Of a DNA stretch of 64,000 bases, positions 101-40,676 are shown piece by piece. Source of the DNA: Vibrio sp. Of7-15 (GTDB lineage: Bacteria; Pseudomonadota; Gammaproteobacteria; Enterobacterales; Vibrionaceae); contig NZ_JAKRGH010000025.1 in NCBI RefSeq assembly GCF_022347565.1, forward strand, positions 1 through 64,000, read 5' to 3'. The notes beneath the pieces were generated by a model. The model searched no databases, had not been told where the DNA came from, and saw only the letters and a program-made list of their open reading frames with translations. How positions within the stretch are numbered: position 1 is the stretch's first letter; each line of letters opens with the position of its first letter. The position numbers were made by a program, and so were the translations under genes.

Positions 101-1258
101 TTATATGCGTGTTTGGGATACTGCATTAAAAACAGATAGCCCAATGACTTCAGCCAACTTAGCAGGTACTGCATTACCTAACTGTCTCATAATTTCACCC
201 CACGCCCCCTCAAACAAATAATCGTCGGGAAACGTTTGTATGCGAGCACTTTCGCGGACAGTAAAATAACGAACACTACCATCTTCATATCTGATCATAT
301 TTTCTCCACCAGGAACGCCGTGAGCTCCAGCTTTTAAAGCTTTAGATGGCTCATCAATATAACTTCCTGTATGCCCTGGATAGATCTTTGCACCATCCTT
401 GAAGATATGCTGGTCATGCTGAGCAGCTACGGGAGATTTTGGATCTGGAAGATCTGAAGTTGCGTCACGTACAGTAACCCAAGGACTTTCAATAGGTCTG
501 AAAAGACCATATTTTTTATGTAGTTTCGCAACTTTCTTGTCTGTACGTTCATCTATACATGGTTTATCTATATTGTGACGTATCCAATATTCACCCGTCA
601 CCCACTTATCCCAGAGCAAACTATCTTCCGAATGAGTTGCCTCAGGAAAAGCCCACTCGGCATCAACGTCAGAGCGAAAGCCAATAATAAACACCCTTTC
701 TCGTTTTTGGGGTACACCGTAGTCAGCTGCATTAACAAGCCTATAAACTACTTTATACTCTAACTCTTCATGCTGAAGCTTTGTATGATACTTTTCTAAA
801 CGACTTCGATGCTCTTCCCAAGTTTCACTTTCTTCTTTCACTACAGATGGGTATTGCAGTTGAAAAATAATGTACTCGAAATACTCTGAAAAATTCTTTC
901 TCAATAAACCCTTAACGTTTTCAAAAATAAACGCTTTCGGCCTCTTTTCTCTGATAGCTCTAACAGCTTCAGGAAACATATCGCGAGAGTCATCATTTCC
1001 TTTAGCCTTTCCCCCAATTGAAAAAGGCTGACATGGGGGGCCACCTGATACTAGATCAATAGCTTCATTGACTTGCTTATAATCAAAGTCAACAACATTA
1101 CCCTCGAACAAACTTTCGCCATAGCCAAAAATAGAGTTTTTTTTCAAAGTGTTACAAGCATGCTTGTTTAGTTCAACAACTGCTTTTGGATTAAAACCAC
1201 TCTTACTTAAACCTATCGCAAGTCCTCCAGCGCCGGCAAAAAGTTCGACTGAATTCAT
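101..1258 (-). CDS. DNA (cytosine-5)-methyltransferase, the type II R-M modification subunit
   Basis: Translation carries the C5-MTase motifs: FAGAGG (motif I, AdoMet binding), GGPPCQPFS (motif IV, catalytic Cys), ENV (motif VI), QKRERVFIIG (motif VIII) and RQLGNAVP (motif X). It sits immediately downstream of a restriction endonuclease gene on the same strand. Confidence 0.9.
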   Translation of the reverse strand: MNSVELFAGAGGLAIGLSKSGFNPKAVVELNKHACNTLKKNSIFGYGESLFEGNVVDFDYKQVNEAIDLVSGGPPCQPFSIGGKAKGNDDSRDMFPEAVRAIREKRPKAFIFENVKGLLRKNFSEYFEYIIFQLQYPSVVKEESETWEEHRSRLEKYHTKLQHEELEYKVVYRLVNAADYGVPQKRERVFIIGFRSDVDAEWAFPEATHSEDSLLWDKWVTGEYWIRHNIDKPCIDERTDKKVAKLHKKYGLFRPIESPWVTVRDATSDLPDPKSPVAAQHDQHIFKDGAKIYPGHTGSYIDEPSKALKAGAHGVPGGENMIRYEDGSVRYFTVRESARIQTFPDDYLFEGAWGEIMRQLGNAVPAKLAEVIGLSVFNAVSQTRI

Positions 1259-5113: not shown

Positions 5114-5493
5114 TTAAGTTCTCATTTTATTGGACAATAATTGCACTTATTATACAAAATAATGATATGTAGATCACACTTTATATTATGATTGTATGAA
5201 TTTACTTCCAAAATACCGGTGTAAAAAGACGAGGGTAATACTTAAACTCTAATTTGATGACTATTTAAAAACAATTAAGTTACCGAATTGGAACACCGCT
5301 TTTTGCTGGTTAACTTAAGAATAACGACAGTAATAATTTAAATAATTGCACTGGTTCCCATTCTGCGATTTCATCTGTAAAGTACGCGCCACCCTCCGTA
5401 TGCATCGTATGTGTAATCATGGAAGGTAAGATAGGAGCAAGAATGCTTTTTTGCTCTATGCTTGAAGCAAGTAGCCAAATGTAGCCACACAAT

Positions 5494-5805
5494 GTGATTA
5501 TGATGGCCTCAAGCAAGTCAATAAATGAAGTAAATAAGAGTATTAAACACATGAATAGCGAACTTGATGTAATTGATAACCTCGAAGAGTTAGAACGTTT
5601 TCTGATCTCAGTGGAAGACGGCGGTTTTGGTTTAGAAGACGTTTCTGGCGTCGGTATGGCAACAAACAACTCCGATGGACGTCATTTTGTTGCGGTATTC
5701 GACAGTAATCAGAAGCTACTGCTCGCACGCTGGGTAACTCAAGAAGTGTTTGAAAATGGTAAAGACATGGTGCGTAATGGGCCAAAACGTACCCTCAATT
5801 CATAA
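5494..5805 (+). CDS. Hypothetical small cytoplasmic protein
   Basis: A 103-aa ORF of non-repetitive composition. The real start is possibly ATG at 5552 (MNSELDVIDNLEEL). The overlapping minus-strand ORF 5310..5669 is low-complexity and less plausible. Confidence 0.35.
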   Translation: MIMMASSKSINEVNKSIKHMNSELDVIDNLEELERFLISVEDGGFGLEDVSGVGMATNNSDGRHFVAVFDSNQKLLLARWVTQEVFENGKDMVRNGPKRTLNS

Positions 5806-6000: not shown

Positions 6001-7038
6001 CTATTCCACTACGTATACATACCACAGTACCTCATTACGTTGTTCTATCTTGATTTGAATTCCCGTCATTTGCTCAATCACCTTCGCATTGGTGATGGTG
6101 TGTAAGCTAGGTTGGGTGGTTGTGAAACTACCGCTTCCTGCCAGCGCGATCAGCAATAACAATTGATCCGCTAAATGTTCTTCGACAGCCGCTTGAGAAT
6201 GAAGGAATTTATTCACTCGACCCGCCGCTCGTTTTGCTACTCTTTCGGCAGAGACTCCCAACTCGCCAACGACTTCAAACACATTACGATGAAAACTACT
6301 TTGAATGCTTAATTGAAAACTGTTACCAGGCCCTGGGCTTACAACATCTTGCACTTGGCTTGTGGCACCTTGCCAATTCAAGATGCTCTGAGCAGTGCGT
6401 ATTTCGCGTCGCCCAATACTCTCAGGGAGTGAGCAGATCAAAGCATGAAGGGAACAATTATGCAGATCTTGAGCAAAACCACTCCCCGATTCTAACAAAT
6501 GAACTGGCCTTAGCTTTTCAGTTGGCTCAATACCAAGTCGCCACTTACCGCCACCAGCAGGGTAAAATCCAAAGCGTATCGTTTTTATGTCACATTTACC
6601 CCCCATATGCCTCAATATGGGCAGATACGACTGCTCTAAAAAACTTAACGAAGGCGACATGCCATTATGGGTTCCCCCTTCAAAGGTGACCGTCGATTTT
6701 TCTTTAGCCAAAGCCAACACAGGTAAGATAGTCTGACAAACTAGCACCGTACTGCCCGCCGTGCCAATGGCAAAATGAAAATGACCTGCTTTTACTCGGC
6801 CGGGAGAAAATCGAATGCGTGTAGATCCAAGCTCTACTCCTTCTGTTGTAGCACCACAAATCTCTTGAGCCGCCAACACCGACGTTAGATGCTGACGCAA
6901 GAGCCCTGGTTTTTTTCTTTTTGATCTAAGGTTAATTAATTCAATATTTGTCTGAGTAAGAATGGATAGTGTCAGTGCTGTTCTAAGTATCTGACCGCCA
7001 CCTTCCCCTTGAGAACCATCAATCACTAAATAAGACAT
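6001..7038 (-). CDS. rtcA: RNA 3'-terminal phosphate cyclase
   Basis: N-terminal DGSQGEGGGQILRTALTLS is the RtcA signature. Length is 345 aa, and it is the last gene of an operon with rtcB. Confidence 0.9.
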   Translation of the reverse strand: MSYLVIDGSQGEGGGQILRTALTLSILTQTNIELINLRSKRKKPGLLRQHLTSVLAAQEICGATTEGVELGSTRIRFSPGRVKAGHFHFAIGTAGSTVLVCQTILPVLALAKEKSTVTFEGGTHNGMSPSLSFLEQSYLPILRHMGGKCDIKTIRFGFYPAGGGKWRLGIEPTEKLRPVHLLESGSGFAQDLHNCSLHALICSLPESIGRREIRTAQSILNWQGATSQVQDVVSPGPGNSFQLSIQSSFHRNVFEVVGELGVSAERVAKRAAGRVNKFLHSQAAVEEHLADQLLLLIALAGSGSFTTTQPSLHTITNAKVIEQMTGIQIKIEQRNEVLWYVYVVE

Positions 7039-7056: not shown

Positions 7057-8280
7057 TTAACCTTTCACACACACCACTTGTTTTAAGGTGTGCACCACCT
7101 CCACCAAGTCTTTTTGGGCGTCCATCACCTTCTCAATGTCTTTATACGCATGAGGGATCTCATCAATCACTGAAGCGTCTTTTCTGCACTCGACACCAGC
7201 CGTAGCTTTTACCTGATCATCAATGTTATACACCTTTTTGGCCTGAGTACGAGACATCACTCGGCCTGCCCCATGGCTACAACTGTTAAAACTATCAGGA
7301 TTTCCTAATCCGCGGACAATAAACGATCGCGCCCCCATACTACCTGGAATAATGCCTAACTCACCTTTTTCAGCGCGCACCGCTCCTTTGCGGGTAACAT
7401 AACACTCTTTGCCAAAATGCTTTTCCCGCGAAATGTAGTTATGGTGACAATTCACCGCCAACTCAGCGGTGGAGAACTCGACCGGCAGCTGTTTCCTAAG
7501 TGCAGAAATGGCATTAAACATCATAATTTCACGGTTTTTAGCGGCAAAATCTTGTGCCCACTCTACCGCTTCAACGTAATCTTCAAAATACTCGCTTCCT
7601 TCTTCAAGGTAAGCCAAATCCATATCAGGTAAGTTCATCTGATGGCGCTGCATTTCTTTTTTAGCCAGCTCAATAAAATAAGTGCCAATTCGGTTTCCTA
7701 CTCCTCGGCTTCCTGAGTGCAACATGATCCACACGGCATCATTTTCATCTAAACACAGCTCTAAGAAGTGATTGCCCGTTCCCATTGTGCCTAGGTGCTT
7801 CACATGATTGCTTTTTTTGATGGCTGGATGTTTCGCGCATATTTTCTCAAAGCGAGCTTCTAACTTCAGCCATTCCTTCGCGACAACCTCGGGAACATTG
7901 TGCCATGCGCCCCTGTCTGCTCTTCCTCGCCCACTCGTTCTCCCATGAGGCACCGCAGCTTCAAAAGCGTGTCTAATCGCTGATAGGTTATCGGGTAATT
8001 GACTTGCCATTAGTGTTGTTTTGGTTGCGACCATACCACAGCCAATATCTACCCCGACTGCCGCAGGAATAACAGCATCAACCGATGGGATCACACTGCC
8101 AATAGTCGCCCCTTTCCCCAAATGCACATCAGGCATCACCGCAATATGAGAATGCACCAAAGGCATCTTCGCAATATTAGTTAACTGCTGCTGTGCTTTT
8201 TCATCAAACGGCACGCCTTTTGTCCATGATTTGATGGTTGCGTGCCCTTTTTTTTCAATAACATCATAATTTTTACACAT
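7057..8280 (-). CDS. rtcB: RNA-splicing ligase RtcB
   Basis: A 407-aa protein with RtcB hallmarks: HSGSRGVGN, NCHHNY and metal-binding His/Cys. It is 18 bp upstream of rtcA. Confidence 0.9.
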   Translation of the reverse strand: MCKNYDVIEKKGHATIKSWTKGVPFDEKAQQQLTNIAKMPLVHSHIAVMPDVHLGKGATIGSVIPSVDAVIPAAVGVDIGCGMVATKTTLMASQLPDNLSAIRHAFEAAVPHGRTSGRGRADRGAWHNVPEVVAKEWLKLEARFEKICAKHPAIKKSNHVKHLGTMGTGNHFLELCLDENDAVWIMLHSGSRGVGNRIGTYFIELAKKEMQRHQMNLPDMDLAYLEEGSEYFEDYVEAVEWAQDFAAKNREIMMFNAISALRKQLPVEFSTAELAVNCHHNYISREKHFGKECYVTRKGAVRAEKGELGIIPGSMGARSFIVRGLGNPDSFNSCSHGAGRVMSRTQAKKVYNIDDQVKATAGVECRKDASVIDEIPHAYKDIEKVMDAQKDLVEVVHTLKQVVCVKG

Positions 8281-8329: not shown

Positions 8330-9484
8330 TTAAGCAACTTTCACAACACCGTTCATCAAACCGTCTAAACCACCGTAAACCGTTAAGCTATCAATGCGCT
8401 CTGCGACTTTTTCGAGGGCTTCTAACTCTTTTAGTCGCATTAAGGTTGGGTTGTTTTCCATCACTTTTGCTGTGTTGTGTAAACTTCGTGTTGCGCTGGT
8501 TTCTTCACGCCTTTTGATCACGTTGGCTTCAGCGGCTTTTTGCGCTTCCACGACTTGATTGAGGATTGCTTTCATTTCGCCCGGTAAAATGATGTCTTTC
8601 ACACCAACGCTCAACAGCGCAATCCCTATGTTAGACAAACGCGCTACAACTAACTCTTTCACGGTTTCGTTGACGTATAATTTATCCAATAAGATATCAT
8701 CGAGTGACTTAGTCCCCACCGCTTCCCTTAAAGCCAGTTGCAAAGTTTTATAAATAAAGTCTCCTACGTCATCGACACTGCGCGCCGCCAGCTCAGCGTC
8801 ATTCACTTGGATACTGGCATTTAAATTAATACGCAGACTCACCCTATCTTTACTCAAGATCTCCTGACCAGAAATCTCCAACATTTGCGCTCGACAATCG
8901 AACGACTTCACTTCGACTGTATGATTGAATTGCCAAAAACCATGCTGACCCGGCGTTAGTTGCTTAACAAGCTGTCCGTTCACATACAGCAAGCCGATAT
9001 GATTTTTAGCCACATAAAGATCCGCAATCGGCTTAATGGCCACCGTTTGATCGTTTTTGATCAGCCTCGCCGCCGTATTTGCTCCAGCACGATTAATCAA
9101 AAAAAGAGCGTGCTCATCGACATTAATATTGTCTTCAATAGGCACTGTGTCTAACCGTATTTCACCGCTCTCCTTCCACAGATATAAATGAGTGCTGGGG
9201 GCAACCACTCCTCTTAGCAAATCATTCACATACAATAAGCCAGCTTCTGTACTTCCTAGCTGGTAATGAGAAATGTGCTCACTTAATTCCGGATAATGAC
9301 GATATAATCTTTCTGCATTCTTTTCTTTAAAGTACAAATCATTAATATCAAAAGTTATGCATTCCAATTCATTTTTTATGTCCCACATGTGGTACTTACC
9401 CGGAGTTAATACCCTGTCTAGTGCTTGGTTCTTAAACACCAATACTCGTTGGTTTTCAGCCACTATTTGCGTTTTTCTCAACAT
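8330..9484 (-). CDS. SPFH/band-7 (slipin-like) domain protein, first cistron of the rtcBA operon
   Basis: The C-terminal half shows a band-7 pattern (LSKDRVSLRINLNASIQV...IGIALLSVGVKDIILPGEMKAILNQVVEAQKAAEANVIKRREETSA...). It lies 49 bp upstream of rtcB on the same strand. Confidence 0.6.
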   Translation of the reverse strand: MLRKTQIVAENQRVLVFKNQALDRVLTPGKYHMWDIKNELECITFDINDLYFKEKNAERLYRHYPELSEHISHYQLGSTEAGLLYVNDLLRGVVAPSTHLYLWKESGEIRLDTVPIEDNINVDEHALFLINRAGANTAARLIKNDQTVAIKPIADLYVAKNHIGLLYVNGQLVKQLTPGQHGFWQFNHTVEVKSFDCRAQMLEISGQEILSKDRVSLRINLNASIQVNDAELAARSVDDVGDFIYKTLQLALREAVGTKSLDDILLDKLYVNETVKELVVARLSNIGIALLSVGVKDIILPGEMKAILNQVVEAQKAAEANVIKRREETSATRSLHNTAKVMENNPTLMRLKELEALEKVAERIDSLTVYGGLDGLMNGVVKVA

Positions 9485-9654
9485 CGTTAACCTCTGCGCT
9501 TAAATGGGGTGTTAGTAAGGGTGATATGCGTATTTAACAAAGGCCCAAGACTGCATTACAGCGGGGAGCGTCCTGCTTGCCACTACGTATTCGTACTCGG
9601 CATTCATCAAACATTGGCACTCACGACTTACTAACTCTTTTACTTACAAATGAA

Positions 9655-9715
9655 AAATGATTGGGATTTGAACCCTAACAATCCGAAACCATTGTTCGGT
9701 GTTTTACCTGTATGT
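9655..9715 (-). ncRNA. Second, partial tRNA-like module (stem-loop plus T-arm)
   Basis: Minus-strand CCGAA-CAATGGT-TTCGG ... GGGTTCAAATCCC gives a 5-bp stem with a 7-nt loop, then a T-arm-like GGGTTCAAATCCC. It sits directly 3' of the complete tRNA-like element. Confidence 0.4.
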
Positions 9716-9789
9716 TTTTAAGATGGGAATCGAACCCATGACAAACGAACCTTTAGTTCGCCGCTCTACCAAACTGAGCTACTTAAATG
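9716..9789 (-). ncRNA. tRNA-like RNA (complete cloverleaf mimic); candidate Y-RNA/YrlA-like module, not a canonical tRNA
   Basis: Minus-strand read: ATTTAAG-T-A-GCTC-AGTTTGGTA-GAGC-G-GCGAA-CTAAAGG-TTCGT-TTGTC-ATGGG-TTCGATT-CCCAT-CTTAAAA. The D-arm (AGCTCAGTTTGGTAGAGC) and T-arm (GGGTTCGATTCCC) are canonical. Against a real tRNA: the acceptor stem is AT-rich with an A1-A72 mismatch, no CCA is encoded, and the anticodon loop reads AAA. Confidence 0.55.
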
Positions 9790-9885
9790 GTTGTTTGACC
9801 CATTGATTCGGCATACGCCTTTGCATGGCTTGGCGCACCGAAGTGACTTTTTGAATCACACCTCATGAATCAGACACTGAAGTAA

Positions 9886-9903
9886 TTACAAGTCACGTGC
9901 CAA
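9886..9903 (-). promoter_or_regulatory. Sigma-54 (-24/-12) promoter candidate for the tRNA-like RNA and SPFH-rtcB-rtcA transcript
   Basis: Minus strand reads TTGGCACGTGACTTGTAA, i.e. TGGCACG-N4-TTGT against consensus TGGCACG-N4-TTGCW. The GG and the spacing are preserved; the -12 element is GT instead of GC. It lies divergent from RtcR, a sigma54 activator, and about 90 nt upstream of the tRNA-like element. Confidence 0.5.
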
Positions 9904-10051: not shown

Positions 10052-11653
10052 ATGAAGAAGAATACCATCGTTGTTAGTTTGCTGGGCACACAGTTAGACT
10101 ATGTAGGGAAAAGAGCTGATCGGTGGGAAAAATGGCGACCCAACGTGAGCCTGTGTAGCCAAGAAAACTTTCTCGTCCATCACCTGCACCTACTGCACGA
10201 TCACCATAAGAACAACCTCGCGAGTACAATCAGCGAAGATATAAAGTCGGTTTCCCCTGAAACCACCACTCATTTGCATACCATCAACTTTACTGATCCT
10301 TGGGATTTTGAAGAGGTGTATGCCAAGTTATTCGATTGGTGCCAACAACAAGAGTTTGATACGGATAACAACGACTATTTATTTCACATCACCACTGGCA
10401 CTCACGTGGTTCAAATATGCAGTTACTTACTCACCGAAAGTCGCCATTTTCCGGGTCGTCTTATTCAAACTGCACCGGACAGTAAAAATAAGAACAAATC
10501 GGTTGGTTATGTTCAAATTATTGATTTGGATTTATCGAAATACGATCAGCTGGCCACACGTTTTGACGTAGAGCACCTTGAAGGTAAAGAGTTTCTAAAA
10601 GATGGTATTGAGACTAAGAACAAAGCCTTTAACAAGCTGATCACTCAAATAGAGAAAGTGGCGATTCGATCCCATGATCCAATGCTATTAACCGGGCCAA
10701 CAGGGGCAGGAAAAAGTCAGTTAGCCACACGGATCTACCAACTAAAGAAGAAGCGTTCCATGCTCACTGGCCCTTTAGTTTCTGTCAACTGTGCCACGTT
10801 AAAAGGTGACAATGCCATGGCTGCGTTATTTGGCCATACCAAAGGGGCATTTACTGGCGCTCTAAAATCACGAGATGGCTTTTTACTGACCGCCCATCAA
10901 GGCGTTTTGTTTCTCGATGAAATCGGTGAGCTGGGGTTAAAAGAGCAAGCCATGTTACTGCATGCCATCGAAAATAAAACCTTTCACCCAGTGGGCAGTG
11001 ATACCCCTGTACAAAGTGATTTCCAACTCATTGCTGGCACTAACAGAAACCTCAAGCAAGACATTGAAAAAGGCCTGTTCCGAGAGGATTTACTGGCTCG
11101 CATCAACCTGTGGACGTACGAGTTACCCGCTTTAAAAGACAGAAAGGAAGACATACCCGCTAACGTAGAGTATGAAATGGAGCGATTTGCTAAAAATTCC
11201 GGGCAACGGGTGCAATTTAACAAAGAAGCCAAAAGTGCCTTCATTGATTTTGCCACTTCCGCCCAAGCTCTGTGGTCGGGTAATTTTCGCGATCTCAGCT
11301 CAGCCATCACAAGGCTCTGTACTTTGGCCGACTCTTCACGAATTACGGTTGATGACGTCACCGATGAAATAGCGAGACTAAAACAGTCTTGGTATCCTGT
11401 TAAGCCACAAACATCAACAAGGCACCTAGACAAATACCTCTCTGATAATCAGCTCACTCAACTGGATCAATTTGATGCCAACCAGCTTAATTATGTACTC
11501 GGTATTTGTCAGCAACACAGCAGCATGGCATCTGCTGGCAGAGAGCTATTTAATGTCAGCCGTACAATGAAGTCGCAGCCGAACGATTCCAGTCGATTAC
11601 AAAAATACTTGGCTAAATTTGGGTTAAAATGGAAAGACATATCCAGCCATTAA
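10052..11653 (+). CDS. rtcR: Sigma-54-dependent transcriptional activator RtcR (CARF-like N-domain, AAA+ sigma54-interaction domain, C-terminal HTH)
   Basis: GPTGAGKSQLA is the Walker A and GAFTGA-like HTKGAFTGA is the sigma54-contact motif; GVLFLDEIGEL is the Walker B. Length is 533 aa, and it is divergent from the rtc operon. Confidence 0.9.
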   Translation: MKKNTIVVSLLGTQLDYVGKRADRWEKWRPNVSLCSQENFLVHHLHLLHDHHKNNLASTISEDIKSVSPETTTHLHTINFTDPWDFEEVYAKLFDWCQQQEFDTDNNDYLFHITTGTHVVQICSYLLTESRHFPGRLIQTAPDSKNKNKSVGYVQIIDLDLSKYDQLATRFDVEHLEGKEFLKDGIETKNKAFNKLITQIEKVAIRSHDPMLLTGPTGAGKSQLATRIYQLKKKRSMLTGPLVSVNCATLKGDNAMAALFGHTKGAFTGALKSRDGFLLTAHQGVLFLDEIGELGLKEQAMLLHAIENKTFHPVGSDTPVQSDFQLIAGTNRNLKQDIEKGLFREDLLARINLWTYELPALKDRKEDIPANVEYEMERFAKNSGQRVQFNKEAKSAFIDFATSAQALWSGNFRDLSSAITRLCTLADSSRITVDDVTDEIARLKQSWYPVKPQTSTRHLDKYLSDNQLTQLDQFDANQLNYVLGICQQHSSMASAGRELFNVSRTMKSQPNDSSRLQKYLAKFGLKWKDISSH

Positions 11654-23131: not shown

Positions 23132-25375
23132 TTAAGCCGGATCTAATACTGACGGTACGCCGGGAGCAGAAATATCCAGCTCTTTTGTGGTAGTGTCGTA
23201 CTTAATCACCATTTCTCCTTCCGCATTTGGCGTTTGAAGAAGCGTATTCGCCACCGCAGGCTTAATGCGTGTGGTGATGTAACCAGGCAAACCACGCGCA
23301 CCAATCGCTGGCACATAGATATCTTGACAAATATCGGCCAATGTTTGGTCGCTAATATTAATGTGAATGTTTTTACCACCAGCCTGAATTTGATGATTCA
23401 GTTTTTCAATTTCACGGCGAGCAATTTTTTCCACCACCGCAAGATCCAAGCGATTGAAACACACAATATTTTCACGACCGTTAAAGCGGTTCAAGAACTC
23501 AGGGCGATACACTTCATCCAGCTCTTCCATTGTTGCACTCACGGCTTCATCAAAGGTGAGGCTTTCATCTAGGAAGTTAGGTTGACCAATGTTAGTTGTC
23601 ATCAGGATAATGGCTTCACCGAATGATACCGTTAAACCACGGTTATCGGTTAAGCGACCATCATCAAGCACTTGAAGTAGTACGTTAAATACATCTGGAT
23701 GTGCTTTTTCCATTTCATCAAAAAGAATGATAACACGAGGGTTTGCACGCATTGAGTTGGTTAAAATTCCTCCCGCTTCATAACCTTCATAACCAGGAGG
23801 AGCACCGATCAGCTTCGCCACACCGTGTTTTTCCATGTACTCGGACATATCAAATCTAAGCAGGGCACGCTCATCATCAAACAAAGCCGCCGCCAGCGCT
23901 TTTGCTAATTCAGTTTTACCCGTACCCGATGGGCCTAAAAACATGAAAGAAGCTTGTGGTTTTTCAGGATCTTTTAAGCCTACACGCGCAACTCGTACCG
24001 CGTCTGCTAATTGATTCACGGCATGATCTTGACCATACACGCGAGAATTTAATACGGAATGTATTTTAAGTAATTTACTGCGTTCGTCTTGATTCAACTT
24101 ATCTGTTGCAATACCTGAAATGGCACTGAACTTCGATAATACGCTGTCTGTATCTAAAGACAAATTTGCATTAACTTGCGCTGTCAGCTGATCAAAGGCC
24201 GCTTTATTTTCTTGTACATAGGCTTCCATTTTCGTAATGTCAGCACGAATTTTACTGATCGCTTCCGACTCAAATCCAGCGGCTAATGAAGCAGAAAATG
24301 AACGGAATTGGTTAACGGTTTCTGGCTCAGCTTTTTTCTCGCCTTTTTGTTGTTCGATTTCTTGCTGTTTTAGCAACGCTTCTTCAAGCTCCAGCAGCCC
24401 TTCTTCACCATCACGTTGATTTTTATAACACTTACGCAATTGTTGTTGAACCGCTTGCCATTGCTCATGTTGCTGGCTAATTGCCTGAATAAGCTCATTC
24501 TTTTTCGCTAATAGCTGCTCAGCAGGTACATGCGTAAGTTCGCTGGTTTCATCTCCAGCTAAGGCGCTTTCAATCTGGCTCAGCTGTTGGTTTAATTCGG
24601 TTAATGCCGCTGGTGAAGCATGAGCTTGCTGACGGTAAGTTGTCAACGCACGGTCAAGTAAGTTCAAAGTACGCTCAGGCTGAGCACGACTTAAACTCAT
24701 TTCTCGTACACGATACTTATTGGTTAAATCGATAGCGGTATTAATCGCTTCTGCACTGATTTTGATTTTATGGTGCTGCTCTAATCGTTTGCTGGTGGTA
24801 GTAATGATGTCAAACAAAGAATCATCCGCCGGCTCTTTAATGTCGAGCATGGTGTAATATTCACGCATATCTGAGTGACATTTCAACACGACTTCTAAAT
24901 CTTCATCACGTGTTTCAAAAATAACCTGAAACTTACCTAAACGAACGTCTCGTACTAAGGCATTGATAAAGTTGGTGCAACCATTATTACGGGCTGCTTC
25001 AATAAAATCACGCGCGTCTTCAACAATCAAAATCGCTTCCGCTGAGCGCCCTAGCGTTCGCAATAGCTTTTGAAAGTGTTCATTCATGCTGTTTGGATCG
25101 CCCGATGAAAACAAACCATCGGTATCTAACCAGTAAAAACGTTTATTAATAATATCGAAAGACGCATGCTGGTCGCTTTTGCTGGCTTGCAAGCCTAAAC
25201 ACAACGCAGAGCAGCCAACACCGCCTGTACCAACCAATAAAACACTGTTGGCTTGCTTACGCATTAAAATACCCGTCAGCTGCTTTAATTCTTTATCACG
25301 GCCAACCAGTTGAAAATCTGTATGTTGGGCTAGCTTATCACGCCCACGAATTAAGTAGTTATGTTGTTGTGGCAT
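23132..25375 (-). CDS. ClpB/ClpV-like double-AAA+ ATPase with a degenerate D1 Walker A and a long coiled-coil middle domain
   Basis: D2 is intact: GPSGTGKT (Walker A), IILFDEMEKAH (Walker B), MTTNIG (sensor 1) and the VYGQDHAV signature. D1 reads LLVGTGGVGCSAL, with Cys where the Walker A Lys normally sits. About 200 aa of coiled coil separate the modules. Length is 747 aa. Confidence 0.75.
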   Translation of the reverse strand: MPQQHNYLIRGRDKLAQHTDFQLVGRDKELKQLTGILMRKQANSVLLVGTGGVGCSALCLGLQASKSDQHASFDIINKRFYWLDTDGLFSSGDPNSMNEHFQKLLRTLGRSAEAILIVEDARDFIEAARNNGCTNFINALVRDVRLGKFQVIFETRDEDLEVVLKCHSDMREYYTMLDIKEPADDSLFDIITTTSKRLEQHHKIKISAEAINTAIDLTNKYRVREMSLSRAQPERTLNLLDRALTTYRQQAHASPAALTELNQQLSQIESALAGDETSELTHVPAEQLLAKKNELIQAISQQHEQWQAVQQQLRKCYKNQRDGEEGLLELEEALLKQQEIEQQKGEKKAEPETVNQFRSFSASLAAGFESEAISKIRADITKMEAYVQENKAAFDQLTAQVNANLSLDTDSVLSKFSAISGIATDKLNQDERSKLLKIHSVLNSRVYGQDHAVNQLADAVRVARVGLKDPEKPQASFMFLGPSGTGKTELAKALAAALFDDERALLRFDMSEYMEKHGVAKLIGAPPGYEGYEAGGILTNSMRANPRVIILFDEMEKAHPDVFNVLLQVLDDGRLTDNRGLTVSFGEAIILMTTNIGQPNFLDESLTFDEAVSATMEELDEVYRPEFLNRFNGRENIVCFNRLDLAVVEKIARREIEKLNHQIQAGGKNIHINISDQTLADICQDIYVPAIGARGLPGYITTRIKPAVANTLLQTPNAEGEMVIKYDTTTKELDISAPGVPSVLDPA

Positions 25376-25450: not shown

Positions 25451-27142
25451 TTAAAAGCCAAATGGGCTCTTTTCTGCTTGCTTTTGTGGTTGTTCCGCTT
25501 GTTTTTCATCATCAAACTTTCCAGCCGTAACGTCAGCGGCAACCGAGATAGAGTCTTGTACGCTCTCTTGTACGTCTTTTGCTGTGCTCTCTAAACGGCT
25601 TAATAGATCTTTCGTTTCAAGCAGACCATCGCGGGTAATGCCTGTCGCTGTTTCAATCACTTGGCCATATTGCTCTAAATCTTCAAGTGCTTTGCTCAGC
25701 TCATTGTTTTGCTCTTGTGTACCAAGGGCAACACGGATCACTTCTTTTTGGCCTAAGTTAGAAGTGGTTTGCTGCATACGCTCAAGGGACATACGCGCCA
25801 TTTCTGACGATTCGCCCAATGCCGCAGAAGACACTGCTTGCAGTACCGTGCTCAGCTGATCCGCAACGCCAGCGACGCCCGAGCTGTGCAGTTGGCGTGT
25901 TTTAGAAATTTGCTGATCATTGGCATCCTGCATCGACTTGATTCGGTGGCCTGAGCCCGTTAGCTCCGCCAGTACTGACGTCGTATCAATCGCCGAGTTA
26001 CCTAACGATTTAATGTGGTTTTCCAGATCACGCTTGTGACGCTCACGAGTCATACGCTCGATGTCACCTTCTGACTCTCCGCCTGGTTGCAGCGTGTCAC
26101 GTAATGCTTCGTTTTGAGCATCGGCTTCTTTAGTCGCATCGTTAATGATGGCGTACATTTCACGCATGCTGAAGTTTGCCTCATTAAGGTTCTCGATCTG
26201 ACCATTCATCATGTCAAAATGCTCAGAAACCGTACCCACTCGAACTTCCGTTGTTTCAATAAAGTCTTGCGCCGCCGTGACTAAAGCTTTTTGTCTGTCT
26301 TTGTGCTCGTTAGAAGAGATATCAAGCAGCTCGCGTAGTTTAGCTTTTTGAGCCGCATACTCGCTCAGGCTGGACTCTTTTGTTGGGTGTTGCGGAGTAT
26401 CTGCGATAGTTTGAGTTAACTGGGCTAACTCTTGGGTGTGTTTGTCCATTTCCATTTGTAAAAGCGCAATCTGTTCGCGCGATTTACGGGTTACATTACC
26501 AAAACCAAACCATGACTTATCTTCACCCAGTTTAGTAATGTACTTTTTCTTCTCATCCATCAGTGATGTTAGAGAAGATAGTTGCTCTTCTTGCTCGGCG
26601 CGCAGTGCAGCCAACTCAGCTTCGGCCTCTTTATCTTCAGCGATTTCTCGGAATACATCAAACGTCACGCCATTCATACGTAGGGTATATACCGCGTCAA
26701 CGATGTCGGTTAGTGGAGAGATCTTATCTTCAAATGACATCAACGCAGTATTGATGTCATCGTAAACGGTTTTTAGCTCAGAGAATGCACCAGTATCCGT
26801 TAGGGAAATGATTTCTTGTGCCATGCGCTTACGTTCATGCTGTAAGAATTCTTTGAATTGGTTGAATTCTTCCAGTTTCTCTTTAGCTTCGTCTTTGTTA
26901 TTACTGAACGTCAATGCTTTTGAAACGGCATTCTTCTTGTCCGTTGGCGTTAAGCTTGGATCTAAAATAATCCCATAAAATGTGTTCGCCTGAATATTGG
27001 CAAACTTTTGACTGCTCTCTTGCTGCGCTCTGGTCTCTGATTTTGAATTACTAGAGCGACGCTTCGACGTATTGACTGCCTGCTCTAACACGTTATTCAT
27101 TTCATTGGACTGTTTTCTTTTTTTACTCGAATTAGATGACAT
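25451..27142 (-). CDS. Hypothetical coiled-coil protein (possibly TelA-like), first gene of the cluster
   Basis: A 563-aa protein dominated by heptad-like acidic/Gln-rich segments with no TM and no nucleotide-binding motifs. The TelA/KlaA-like assignment is only an impression. Confidence 0.4.
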   Translation of the reverse strand: MSSNSSKKRKQSNEMNNVLEQAVNTSKRRSSNSKSETRAQQESSQKFANIQANTFYGIILDPSLTPTDKKNAVSKALTFSNNKDEAKEKLEEFNQFKEFLQHERKRMAQEIISLTDTGAFSELKTVYDDINTALMSFEDKISPLTDIVDAVYTLRMNGVTFDVFREIAEDKEAEAELAALRAEQEEQLSSLTSLMDEKKKYITKLGEDKSWFGFGNVTRKSREQIALLQMEMDKHTQELAQLTQTIADTPQHPTKESSLSEYAAQKAKLRELLDISSNEHKDRQKALVTAAQDFIETTEVRVGTVSEHFDMMNGQIENLNEANFSMREMYAIINDATKEADAQNEALRDTLQPGGESEGDIERMTRERHKRDLENHIKSLGNSAIDTTSVLAELTGSGHRIKSMQDANDQQISKTRQLHSSGVAGVADQLSTVLQAVSSAALGESSEMARMSLERMQQTTSNLGQKEVIRVALGTQEQNNELSKALEDLEQYGQVIETATGITRDGLLETKDLLSRLESTAKDVQESVQDSISVAADVTAGKFDDEKQAEQPQKQAEKSPFGF

Positions 27143-39506: not shown

Positions 39507-40676
39507 ATGGATTTAAGACACTGTTCGGGATTCACCTTACCACTCCAAAAAGGGCCATTTCAGAATAATGGAGCAACGCCTTGGTATTGCGAACTAGGGA
39601 TTGGCTCTCCTGCGCAAAAACTCAAAATGTGCTTTGACACTGGCAGTAACTTCAACTGGGTAACATCCAATCTCTGCTCAGATGATGGCTGCAAGCATTA
39701 TGCAAATGCTCGCTTTAATTTAAATTTGTCTTCAACGTTTGAATGGATAAACCAAGACGTACAATCGGTCAATTTTGGGCCATGGGGCACAATGCAAGTA
39801 GAAACAGGAAGAGATCGTTTATGCCTCCCCTACCATCACGGCCCCTCAATTGTTAGTGATCTCTTTTTAGCCTCTGAATATTCTGGCACTCAGTTTGAAG
39901 AACTCGACTGGGATGGTGGGATCGGCCTGCCAAGCTCTCAAGACATAACAGCGATTGCTCCAAGTGCTTCTTATCCTTTTAGGGGGCACCACACGAATAC
40001 CAATTCAAATGAAGACTTTAATTTTTTCTTAACACTACTAAAAATGGGGCTGGTAGGCACTTCTACCCCTTATATTTCAGTACAAACAGAGCCACTGTGC
40101 GATCACCCAACAGGCTATATTGGGTTTGGCACATTGGATAGGTCTTACGCCTCTTCTCTTGAATATTTGTTTCTGCCTTGGTCGTGTTACCAACAAGAGG
40201 CCAGTTATTTATGGACAACAGCCAACACAACCGTAAAAGTCAATGGCAACACCATTGGCACCAACATGTTTTTTGCCCTAGATACTGGTTCATCGCAATT
40301 TAAAGGGGACAACTCAGTGTTAACCCAAGTGTATAACTTAACAAAAAACGATGGTCCCCCTGTCTCTATTATGCTCTCAGATGAAAATGGCATTGAATAT
40401 GGTGAATTAAACATCACTAGAGATATATACCAATGCAAAATAGAGGCAGGAGAGAAAAAAGGCAAAGTAGTTTCACAATTCCAAGGACTACCTGGGGCAG
40501 ACGACATGCTACTGGTTGGCTCTGTGTTAATGGATCACCTTTACACTGTGTACGAATATGAAGTGATCTCCAACAATGATATTCGCCCTAAAGGCGTCTG
40601 GATTTTCAATAAGCCGAATGGCCCCAAAATTATAAAAAACAGACAAACTTCCACTGCCTCATTATTCTCTCGTTAA
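39507..40676 (+). CDS. Pepsin-like (family A1) aspartic protease homologue, no signal peptide
   Basis: Two catalytic DTGS motifs arranged as in bilobal pepsins: YCELGIGSPAQKLKMCFDTGSNFNWV in the first lobe (compare pepsin Y.G.I.IGTPPQ.F.V.FDTGSS..WV) and FFALDTGSSQF in the second. Length is 389 aa, with a hydrophilic N-terminus. Confidence 0.8.
   Translation: MDLRHCSGFTLPLQKGPFQNNGATPWYCELGIGSPAQKLKMCFDTGSNFNWVTSNLCSDDGCKHYANARFNLNLSSTFEWINQDVQSVNFGPWGTMQVETGRDRLCLPYHHGPSIVSDLFLASEYSGTQFEELDWDGGIGLPSSQDITAIAPSASYPFRGHHTNTNSNEDFNFFLTLLKMGLVGTSTPYISVQTEPLCDHPTGYIGFGTLDRSYASSLEYLFLPWSCYQQEASYLWTTANTTVKVNGNTIGTNMFFALDTGSSQFKGDNSVLTQVYNLTKNDGPPVSIMLSDENGIEYGELNITRDIYQCKIEAGEKKGKVVSQFQGLPGADDMLLVGSVLMDHLYTVYEYEVISNNDIRPKGVWIFNKPNGPKIIKNRQTSTASLFSR

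Follow-up and report, generated by a model that had tools for sequence, protein, structure and literature searches.

What is a tRNA-shaped element doing at the head of an RNA-repair operon, and is it a tRNA at all? The question is raised by Vibrio sp. Of7-15, in a window of 64,000 nt (the whole stretch of DNA analysed here; positions 1 to 64,000 of contig NZ_JAKRGH010000025.1, assembly GCF_022347565.1), where a cloverleaf lies on the minus strand between rtcR and an operon for an SPFH/Band-7 protein, the RNA ligase RtcB and the RNA 3'-phosphate cyclase RtcA. RtcB/RtcA operons are widespread. The element at 9715-9788 is a tRNA mimic that does not decode, and very probably a member of the predicted class named b7a-tRNA (Band-7-associated tRNA).

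ARAGORN, run on the whole window, called a single tRNA gene, at 9714-9788 on the minus strand, and labelled it 'Phe-AAA'. The Rfam tRNA model (RF00005) matched the called unit with 56.1 bits (gathering score 29; E = 2e-9 for the window), and R1, a covariance model made from 60 related units and searched over 730 kb, scored the complete unit (9715..9788, minus strand) at 78.7 bits. The arms follow the canonical order acceptor-D-anticodon-T. The acceptor stem, AUUUAAG/CUUAAAA, has five A-U pairs, one G-C pair and an A1-A72 mismatch; the D arm is GCUC-AGUUUGGUA-GAGC, the anticodon arm GCGAA-CUAAAGG-UUCGU and the T arm AUGGG-UUCGAUU-CCCAU. At the 3' end a discriminator A is followed by CAU, without an encoded CCA. 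These results bear out an earlier note on this DNA, which had described a full minus-strand cloverleaf with canonical D and T arms, an AT-rich and mismatched acceptor stem, no CCA and an AAA anticodon. The same note had expected tRNA finders to fail or to give low scores, and here it erred: ARAGORN calls the unit, and related units reach 50-72 bits with the Rfam tRNA model, against 47-68 bits for genuine tRNAs in the same loci.

A partial unit without a D arm is located at 9652..9713 on the minus strand (R1 18.9 bits, E = 0.017 in 730 kb). It consists of an acceptor 5' strand AUACAGG, an anticodon-type arm CCGAA-CAAUGGU-UUCGG and a T arm with GGGUUCAAAUCCC, and in the alignment with close relatives it corresponds to unit C, the third of the array in L001-L008, with the D arm deleted; the second stem-loop and T-arm module suspected in the earlier note is thus real. 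Arrays are made up of units A-B-C in L001-L005 and L074 and of B-C in L006-L008, and in the window a full unit whose body is A-like is joined by a C unit minus its D arm. Copy number and completeness of the units are clearly fluid among relatives. The minimum-free-energy fold also contains a short hairpin, AUGGGUCAAACAACCAU (9789..9804, minus strand), weak and picked out by eye, which may be a decayed T-arm module, T-arm-only partial modules occupying the same position in many relatives.

Related loci were collected by a scan, with the SPFH protein of the window as query, of a single genome from each species, which yielded 77 loci from Gammaproteobacteria (Alteromonadales, Vibrionales and others), Myxococcota, Planctomycetota and Leptospiraceae. 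R1 found at least one near-full unit 5' of the SPFH gene and on the same strand in 68 of the 77, with 159-776 nt (median 215 nt) between the last unit and the SPFH start in these 68 loci; in the window, the complete unit terminates 231 nt 5' of the Band_7 gene, again on the same strand. According to ARAGORN, most loci have one to three units in tandem, just 5' of the SPFH gene on its strand. Two of the nine loci lacking a near-full unit include almost no upstream sequence, and seven of the nine gave no Rfam match whatever. Pairing in the cloverleaf amounted to 91.8%, compared with 70.1% after shuffling and 33-45% when partners were slid, in a set partly picked by a tRNA finder, which inflates these percentages; changes on both sides occurred in 18 of 21 pairs. 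U8, G18/G19 and the T-arm block G53-U54-U55-C56 were invariant in all 60 aligned units, A58 was kept in 58 and C61 in 57, and the GCUC/GAGC D stem was nearly invariant. As read from this alignment, conservation falls on the acceptor/T minihelix and on the elbow that D loop and T loop form in tRNA.

Some loci of the survey stood apart. In L033-L045 (the Pseudoalteromonas luteoviolacea group) the SPFH protein has about 540 aa, some 150 residues more than the 384 aa of the window protein, and is accompanied by one T-arm-only module and one full unit. L067, L069 and L075 (planctomycete, deltaproteobacterial and related) encode a shorter SPFH homologue with an isolated T-arm-like hairpin 5' of it; no Rfam tRNA or YrlA match was obtained in these three, where the RNA may be more divergent. 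L067 and L069 carry rtcR and rtcB, neither of which was detected in L075. Two further tRNA-like calls were made: just 3' of the SPFH gene in L048, a tRNA-Lys(UUU)-like gene that encodes CCA (5456-5530, plus strand; Rfam tRNA 58 bits) and may be a real tRNA or another mimic, and a weak tRNA-His-like call with CCA in L052 (3258-3332, plus strand; Rfam 38.7 bits), 150 nt 5' of a b7a-type unit.

The anticodon loop is the part in which the units depart most from one another. Among 82 distinct units it measured 7 nt in 44, 5 nt in 16, 6 nt in nine, 4 nt in seven, 8 nt in two, 9 nt in two and 2 nt in one, with one outlier of 25 nt, and U33 was present in 22 of the 44 seven-nucleotide loops. In close relatives the loop columns were about 20-40% identical, compared with 90-100% for the rest of the unit; in some units (L026, L027, 3706-3756) the anticodon arm was missing entirely. 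The 'anticodons' that ARAGORN assigned to orthologous units disagreed, with Ser, Arg, Leu, Pro, stop, 2-base and 4-base calls. Since conservation is lowest in the anticodon loop, which varies in length and keeps U33 in only half of its 7-nt versions, the units are, to judge from their sequences, tRNA mimics that do not decode, and the earlier note was right to take the element for a mimic. The window unit itself has, unlike the family overall, a loop as expected of a decoding tRNA (CUAAAGG, 7 nt, with U33 and a purine at 37); it has neither a paired 1-72 position nor the encoded 3' CCA usual in Gammaproteobacteria, which excludes the bona fide tRNA with CCA that the earlier note had named as fatal to its view. 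An N73-CCA is encoded in 21 of the 82 units, far above chance, the window unit not being among them. The units score like true tRNAs and risk being annotated as odd or suppressor tRNA genes; ARAGORN labelled some of them 'tRNA-Stop' and one 'tRNA-SeC'.

An RNA of this kind had been foreseen. Burroughs and Aravind reportedly proposed in 2016 that SPFH/Band-7 and Rot/TROVE modules are potential scaffolding cofactors with cognate non-coding RNAs (ncRNAs). A passage of a 2018 preprint recounts their 2016 prediction that in certain bacteria RtcB adjoins a Band-7 protein and a predicted ncRNA, and has b7a-tRNA proposed as functionally redundant with YrlA (10.1101/312249). The window element shares with b7a-tRNA the cloverleaf, the adjacency to a Band-7/SPFH gene and the RtcB neighbourhood; nothing that defines the class differs, and the window copy is a reduced array of one full and one D-arm-less unit. 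It is a further instance of the class already predicted computationally in 2016, and as a tRNA mimic it is not new in kind.

Gene arrangements were determined by tblastn with the four proteins of the window over the related loci. rtcB was seen in 53 of them and 43 share the gene order of the window, rtcR diverging from leader-SPFH-rtcB(-rtcA) (L001-L046 except L020 and L022, plus L074; rtcR was not found in L038). The order rtcB(-rtcA)-unit-SPFH occurs in L051, L052, L053, L056 and L077. Relatives with the locus of the window include Shewanella algae, Alteromonas mediterranea and a Pseudoalteromonas. In L047-L050, L055, L057-L066, L068 and L070 the unit and the SPFH gene lie among unrelated neighbours, and neither rtcB nor rtcA nor rtcR was found at a distance of up to 4 kb. 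The RNA-SPFH pair can thus stand alone, and the constant neighbour of the tRNA-like units is SPFH, not RtcB. The same SPFH-in-rtc arrangement is present in Pseudomonas aeruginosa (PMC13086221, PMC8619066). A looser parallel exists in Anabaena, where rtcB, a slipin gene and a silent tRNA operon are under the joint control of a translation-stress repressor (PMC10272220).

The SPFH protein of the window (WP_239186977.1) showed no apparent long hydrophobic stretch on inspection of its translation, made without formal transmembrane prediction. Its AlphaFold model (mean pLDDT 78.5) comprises an N-terminal beta domain (residues 1-135), the SPFH domain and a long helix, and best matches the cage- or ring-forming stomatin, HflK/C, prohibitin, flotillin, erlin and major vault protein. 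The closest relatives, at about 83% identity, are from Colwellia and Paraglaciecola. A mobile or phage origin was considered and rejected, as viral, phage and plasmid collections gave next to no relatives: none was confirmed on viral contigs, phage records contained a single marginal match (25% identity), and the plasmid collection a sole relative on one Photobacterium secondary replicon.

Pfam annotation placed the element, as the earlier note had it, between rtcR (10052..11653, plus strand; RtcR and Sigma54_activat), which encodes a divergent sigma54 activator with a CARF-type RtcR domain, and the operon on the minus strand, formed by the SPFH/Band-7 ('slipin') gene (8330..9484, 384 aa; Band_7), rtcB (7057..8280; RtcB, 429 bits; protein WP_239186974.1) and rtcA (6001..7038; RTC, 258 bits). 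A candidate sigma54-type promoter element, TGGCAC-GTGAC-TTGT, was read at 9888..9902 on the minus strand, from which transcription would start near 9877, and the Shine-Dalgarno sequence of the SPFH gene, AGAGG, is at 9491-9495. The TGGCAC-N5-TTGT motif recurs 5' of the element in 48 related loci (L001-L047 and L074), which agrees with the earlier placement of the element on the operon strand and 3' of a sigma54-type promoter; its -12 element, in the window and these 48 loci, is mostly TTG followed by T, A or G, not TTGC. A search of distant loci with the strict pattern found none. No terminator was found between the units and the SPFH gene on the operon strand; the only nearby terminator match, on the plus strand, was discarded as the reverse reading of the partial unit's anticodon-type stem.

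The tRNA-like units are part of a leader of about 390 nt, which alignment with relatives showed to be conserved from the promoter through the start codon and in which a 5' three-way junction, the units and a 3' rod capped by a GGA loop follow one another. The 5' domain (9793..9880, minus strand) is described by model R2, which matched the window with 71.9 bits and 49 related loci, each time 5' of tRNA-like units. Its helix P1 pairs GAUUC (9871-9867) with GAAUC (9809-9805), P2 is a hairpin GUGA[UUCAAAAAG]UCAC, also given as GUGA[UUCAAAAAN]UCAC, and P3 a hairpin GGUGCGC/GCGUAU. In other loci the closing helix reads, by eye, GUGAUU/AAUCAC, UGUAAC/GUUACA, GUGUUU/AAACAC or CGUAG/CUACG; it is the weakest part of the domain, with 69.6% paired, in a domain where pairing overall was 86.9%, versus 74.2% shuffled and 23-47% with partners slid.

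The 3' domain, a long imperfect hairpin at 9502..9644 on the minus strand, was folded by RNAalifold into 36 pairs, with compensatory changes in 31, and its model R3 matched the window at 117 bits and 47 loci. Helix P1 pairs GUUAGUAAG (9635-9627) with CUUACUAAC (9519-9511). Pairing was 85.3% against 62.4% shuffled and 32-41% slid, and both sides had changed in 32 of the 36 pairs. The apex, G-CA-AGC-NGGAN-GCU-CC-C, is almost invariant, and the window has the version with an AGGAC loop at 9580-9563. This NGGAN loop resembles what we take to be the hairpin site of CsrA/RsmA. The domain ends about 25 nt 5' of the Shine-Dalgarno sequence and does not sequester the ribosome-binding site. The sequence TGGCAA-GCAGG-ACGCT at about 9582-9567, correctly spaced for a second sigma54 promoter, was rejected as one, because its GG is missing in L006-L008 and because the AGC/GCU stem belongs to the apex of the 3' rod, where it covaries to GGC/GCC.

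Neither domain had an Rfam match between 9200 and 10200, even at E up to 10; this search returned only tRNA, a sub-threshold YrlA and a plus-strand match to Plastid-ycf2, discarded as spurious (20 bits against a cut-off of 65.7). In the distant loci L048-L070 the region 3' of the units was too divergent for alignment by MAFFT and RNAalifold. By eye, distant Gammaproteobacteria have a second T arm 40-65 nt after the full unit; in most such loci an AAUGG(N)A-type motif comes before it, as does a short hairpin whose loop is often of the GNRA type. Comparable 5' hairpins were also made out there by eye, as were a hairpin with a GGA-containing loop further 3' in five loci and a 'CACCUAUU' motif following a GGUGG/CCACC-type hairpin in six of L048-L070; distant loci read ACAGGGAUGU at the GGA-type apical loop. 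The architecture of tandem plus partial modules, together with two flanking covarying domains that have no Rfam match, may be new.

For what the element does, the best explanation overall, and in our judgement a probable one, is that the mimics are the RNA partner of the SPFH scaffold in a stress-induced RNA-repair operon. The ribonucleoprotein-cofactor mechanism that would underlie it is put forward more tentatively, at somewhat less than an even chance. Transcription from the RtcR/sigma54 promoter would yield the leader along with SPFH-rtcB-rtcA, so that the RNA would appear only when RtcR senses damaged tRNA. The mimics would fold into the tRNA L-shape and be recognised via the elbow and the acceptor/T helix, and enzymes that recognise the body of a tRNA, such as RNase P and TruB, may handle them. 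In the case of YrlA, TruB and DusA modify the tRNA-like domain, and the Mycobacterium smegmatis RNA is cleaved by RNase P and acquires CCA (PMC4201824). By analogy with all solved SPFH proteins the scaffold would form a ring or cage, and the mimics, as its partner or cofactor, would organise or regulate the repair of cleaved tRNAs by RtcB and RtcA; mimic and SPFH protein would then be the Band-7 counterpart of Y RNA with Ro60. Transcription, processing, SPFH binding and a repair role of the mimics are what we infer here. Handles for experiments are offered by SPFH as the constant partner, by the constraint on the tRNA body and not the anticodon loop, by the two extra covarying domains in a large gammaproteobacterial group and by the conserved sigma54-type motif beside divergent rtcR; the three covariance models (R1-R3) and the exact coordinates back such follow-up.

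Several points weigh against an RNA partner of SPFH. In the passage of the 2018 preprint cited above, b7a-tRNA is described as still awaiting experimental validation (10.1101/312249), and we found no later experimental study of the expression, processing or binding of a b7a-type RNA in the literature. No RNA-binding fold was recognised in the model of the SPFH protein, and residues 1-135 have no assigned fold. Neighbouring units touch or share up to 4 nt, which makes a clean release of every unit by RNase P doubtful, and the cloverleaf pairing percentages are, as stated, inflated. Finally, the rule 'directly upstream of SPFH, same strand' suits a cis-acting leader equally well.

According to this alternative, the tRNA-like folds would be processing or stability signals, such as entry sites for RNase P or RNase E or a protection of the mRNA 5' end, with no RNA acting in trans, and the flanking domains would control SPFH translation, for instance by way of a protein that binds the apical GGA. 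A purely cis-acting leader is an unlikely explanation that nevertheless draws on several observations: the RNA is always directly 5' of SPFH on the same strand, whatever else the locus holds, the 3' domain stops about 25 nt before the Shine-Dalgarno sequence, no terminator intervenes, and the NGGAN loop has its presumed likeness to a CsrA/RsmA site. Deletion of rtcB in P. aeruginosa has been reported to raise RsmA (PMC8619066). A processing signal, however, needs no full set of tertiary contacts, yet U8, G18/G19 and G53-U54-U55-C56 are invariant. The one to three tandem copies are left unexplained, 21 of 82 units encode CCA, a sign of a 3' end matured like that of a tRNA, and the ribosome-binding site is left free by the 3' domain.

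A bolder version of the RNA-partner reading, of about the same low likelihood as the purely cis-acting leader, takes the whole ~390-nt leader as one undescribed large structured RNA that would form a stress-induced ribonucleoprotein cage with a soluble, vault-like SPFH protein, the cage capturing broken tRNAs via tRNA-shaped handles and presenting them to RtcB. If this were true, the leader-SPFH cage would be a bacterial functional analogue, perhaps a relative, of vault or Ro-Y RNA particles. The vault consists of the major vault protein, which has an SPFH-fold shoulder domain, vault RNA and the TROVE protein TEP1, and like the pair described here it combines a cage-forming SPFH-fold protein with a small ncRNA; the window SPFH model matches 9mxv, 4v60 and 6bp7. 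The vault is, however, eukaryotic and its RNA is unrelated in sequence and structure, and the bacterial protein is a putative cage-former. Other tRNA mimics, namely the tRNA-like domain of tmRNA, viral 3' tRNA-like structures and mascRNA, likewise use a tRNA body as a handle for processing enzymes and do not decode. They differ in having a defined 3' CCA or aminoacylation, or roles in nuclear processing, with no link to SPFH or RtcB.

Improbable, by our estimate, is a decoy or sensor for tRNA-cleaving toxins, in which the mimics would absorb anticodon nucleases or other tRNases and cleavage products with 2',3'-cyclic phosphate ends would feed back on the CARF domain of RtcR and amplify induction. 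tRNA fragments with 2',3'-cyclic phosphate ends do activate RtcR, and it has been suggested that YrlA may, through its tRNA-like domain, competitively inhibit an anticodon nuclease (PMC7790460). Fast-changing anticodon loops could reflect an arms race, and the loops of third units keep, by eye, a C-NNN-UAA pattern like that of tRNAs reading ANN codons. On the other hand, about 40% of the loops, at 2-6 nt, are too short to mimic an anticodon loop, U33 is often lost, and some units (those of L026 and L027) have no anticodon arm. The units also lie 3' of an RtcR-dependent promoter and therefore cannot provide the first signal, and a damage-induced nuclease did not cleave Salmonella YrlA (PMC7790460).

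The earlier note had seen the element as fitting the YrlA-like Y RNAs, and the two share several features: YrlA (RF02553) is a ncRNA with tRNA-like D, T and acceptor elements encoded in an RtcR-controlled RNA-repair operon, as in the rsr-yrlBA-rtcBA locus of Salmonella (PMC7790460), its D-arm consensus is almost identical to the D arm of the window unit, and a scaffold-type protein partner is presumed for both. The part of that claim which ties a tRNA-like ncRNA class to RtcB operons held; the assignment to the YrlA/Y RNA type did not. The Rfam YrlA model gave 15.1 bits (E = 6.2) against a gathering score of 69; YrlA has its T arm before the D arm, whereas the window unit keeps the normal order and is without the Ro-binding terminal stem. 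Its partner gene encodes SPFH, to which units are linked even at loci without rtc genes, and not a TROVE protein. The earlier observation that no Ro/Rsr gene accompanies the element agrees with the absence of a TROVE match among window ORFs of at least 380 aa. A YrlA-type RNA whose Ro60/Rsr partner is encoded outside the window is thus very improbable.

Even less credible, and contradicted by the comparative data, is a genuine tRNA-Phe (AAA) co-transcribed with the operon and active in decoding. The units share with genuine tRNA genes the cloverleaf, the nucleotides of the tertiary contacts and the range of Rfam scores, and the window unit adds the ARAGORN call, its 7-nt loop, U33 and purine 37. 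In the mimics, however, the anticodon loop is unconstrained and often of the wrong length, and orthologous units have unrelated 'anticodons' in loops of 2-9 nt; the mimics mostly lack CCA, which gammaproteobacterial tRNA genes normally encode, overlap one another and have an AU-rich, mismatched acceptor stem (A1-A72 in the window), and we know of no bacterium that uses the anticodon AAA with an unmodified A34. An att-site duplicate left by integrase insertion, suggested by the incomplete second module and by the fact that tRNA 3' fragments do arise at integration sites, was named in the earlier note as a refuting case and can be dismissed on the same comparative data, since 68 of 77 loci, from several phyla, agree in position, strand and covarying structure, no integrase is found among the annotated window genes, rtc-flanking genes included, and the partial module misses an internal arm and not a terminal portion, and a chance match is as little credible at an Rfam E of 2e-9.

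Elsewhere in the window, a gene for a ClpB-like AAA_2 ATPase (23132-25375, minus strand) adjoins a 563-aa ORF without Pfam family (25451-27142, minus strand). In L068, too, an AAA_2/ClpB_D2-small protein is encoded directly 5' of the tRNA-like and SPFH pair, which may be coincidence. A C-5 cytosine DNA methylase gene is located at the window edge (101-1258, minus strand), and an ORF at 39507-40676 on the plus strand has a domain of the pepsin type (Pfam 'Eukaryotic aspartyl protease'), uncommon among bacteria.

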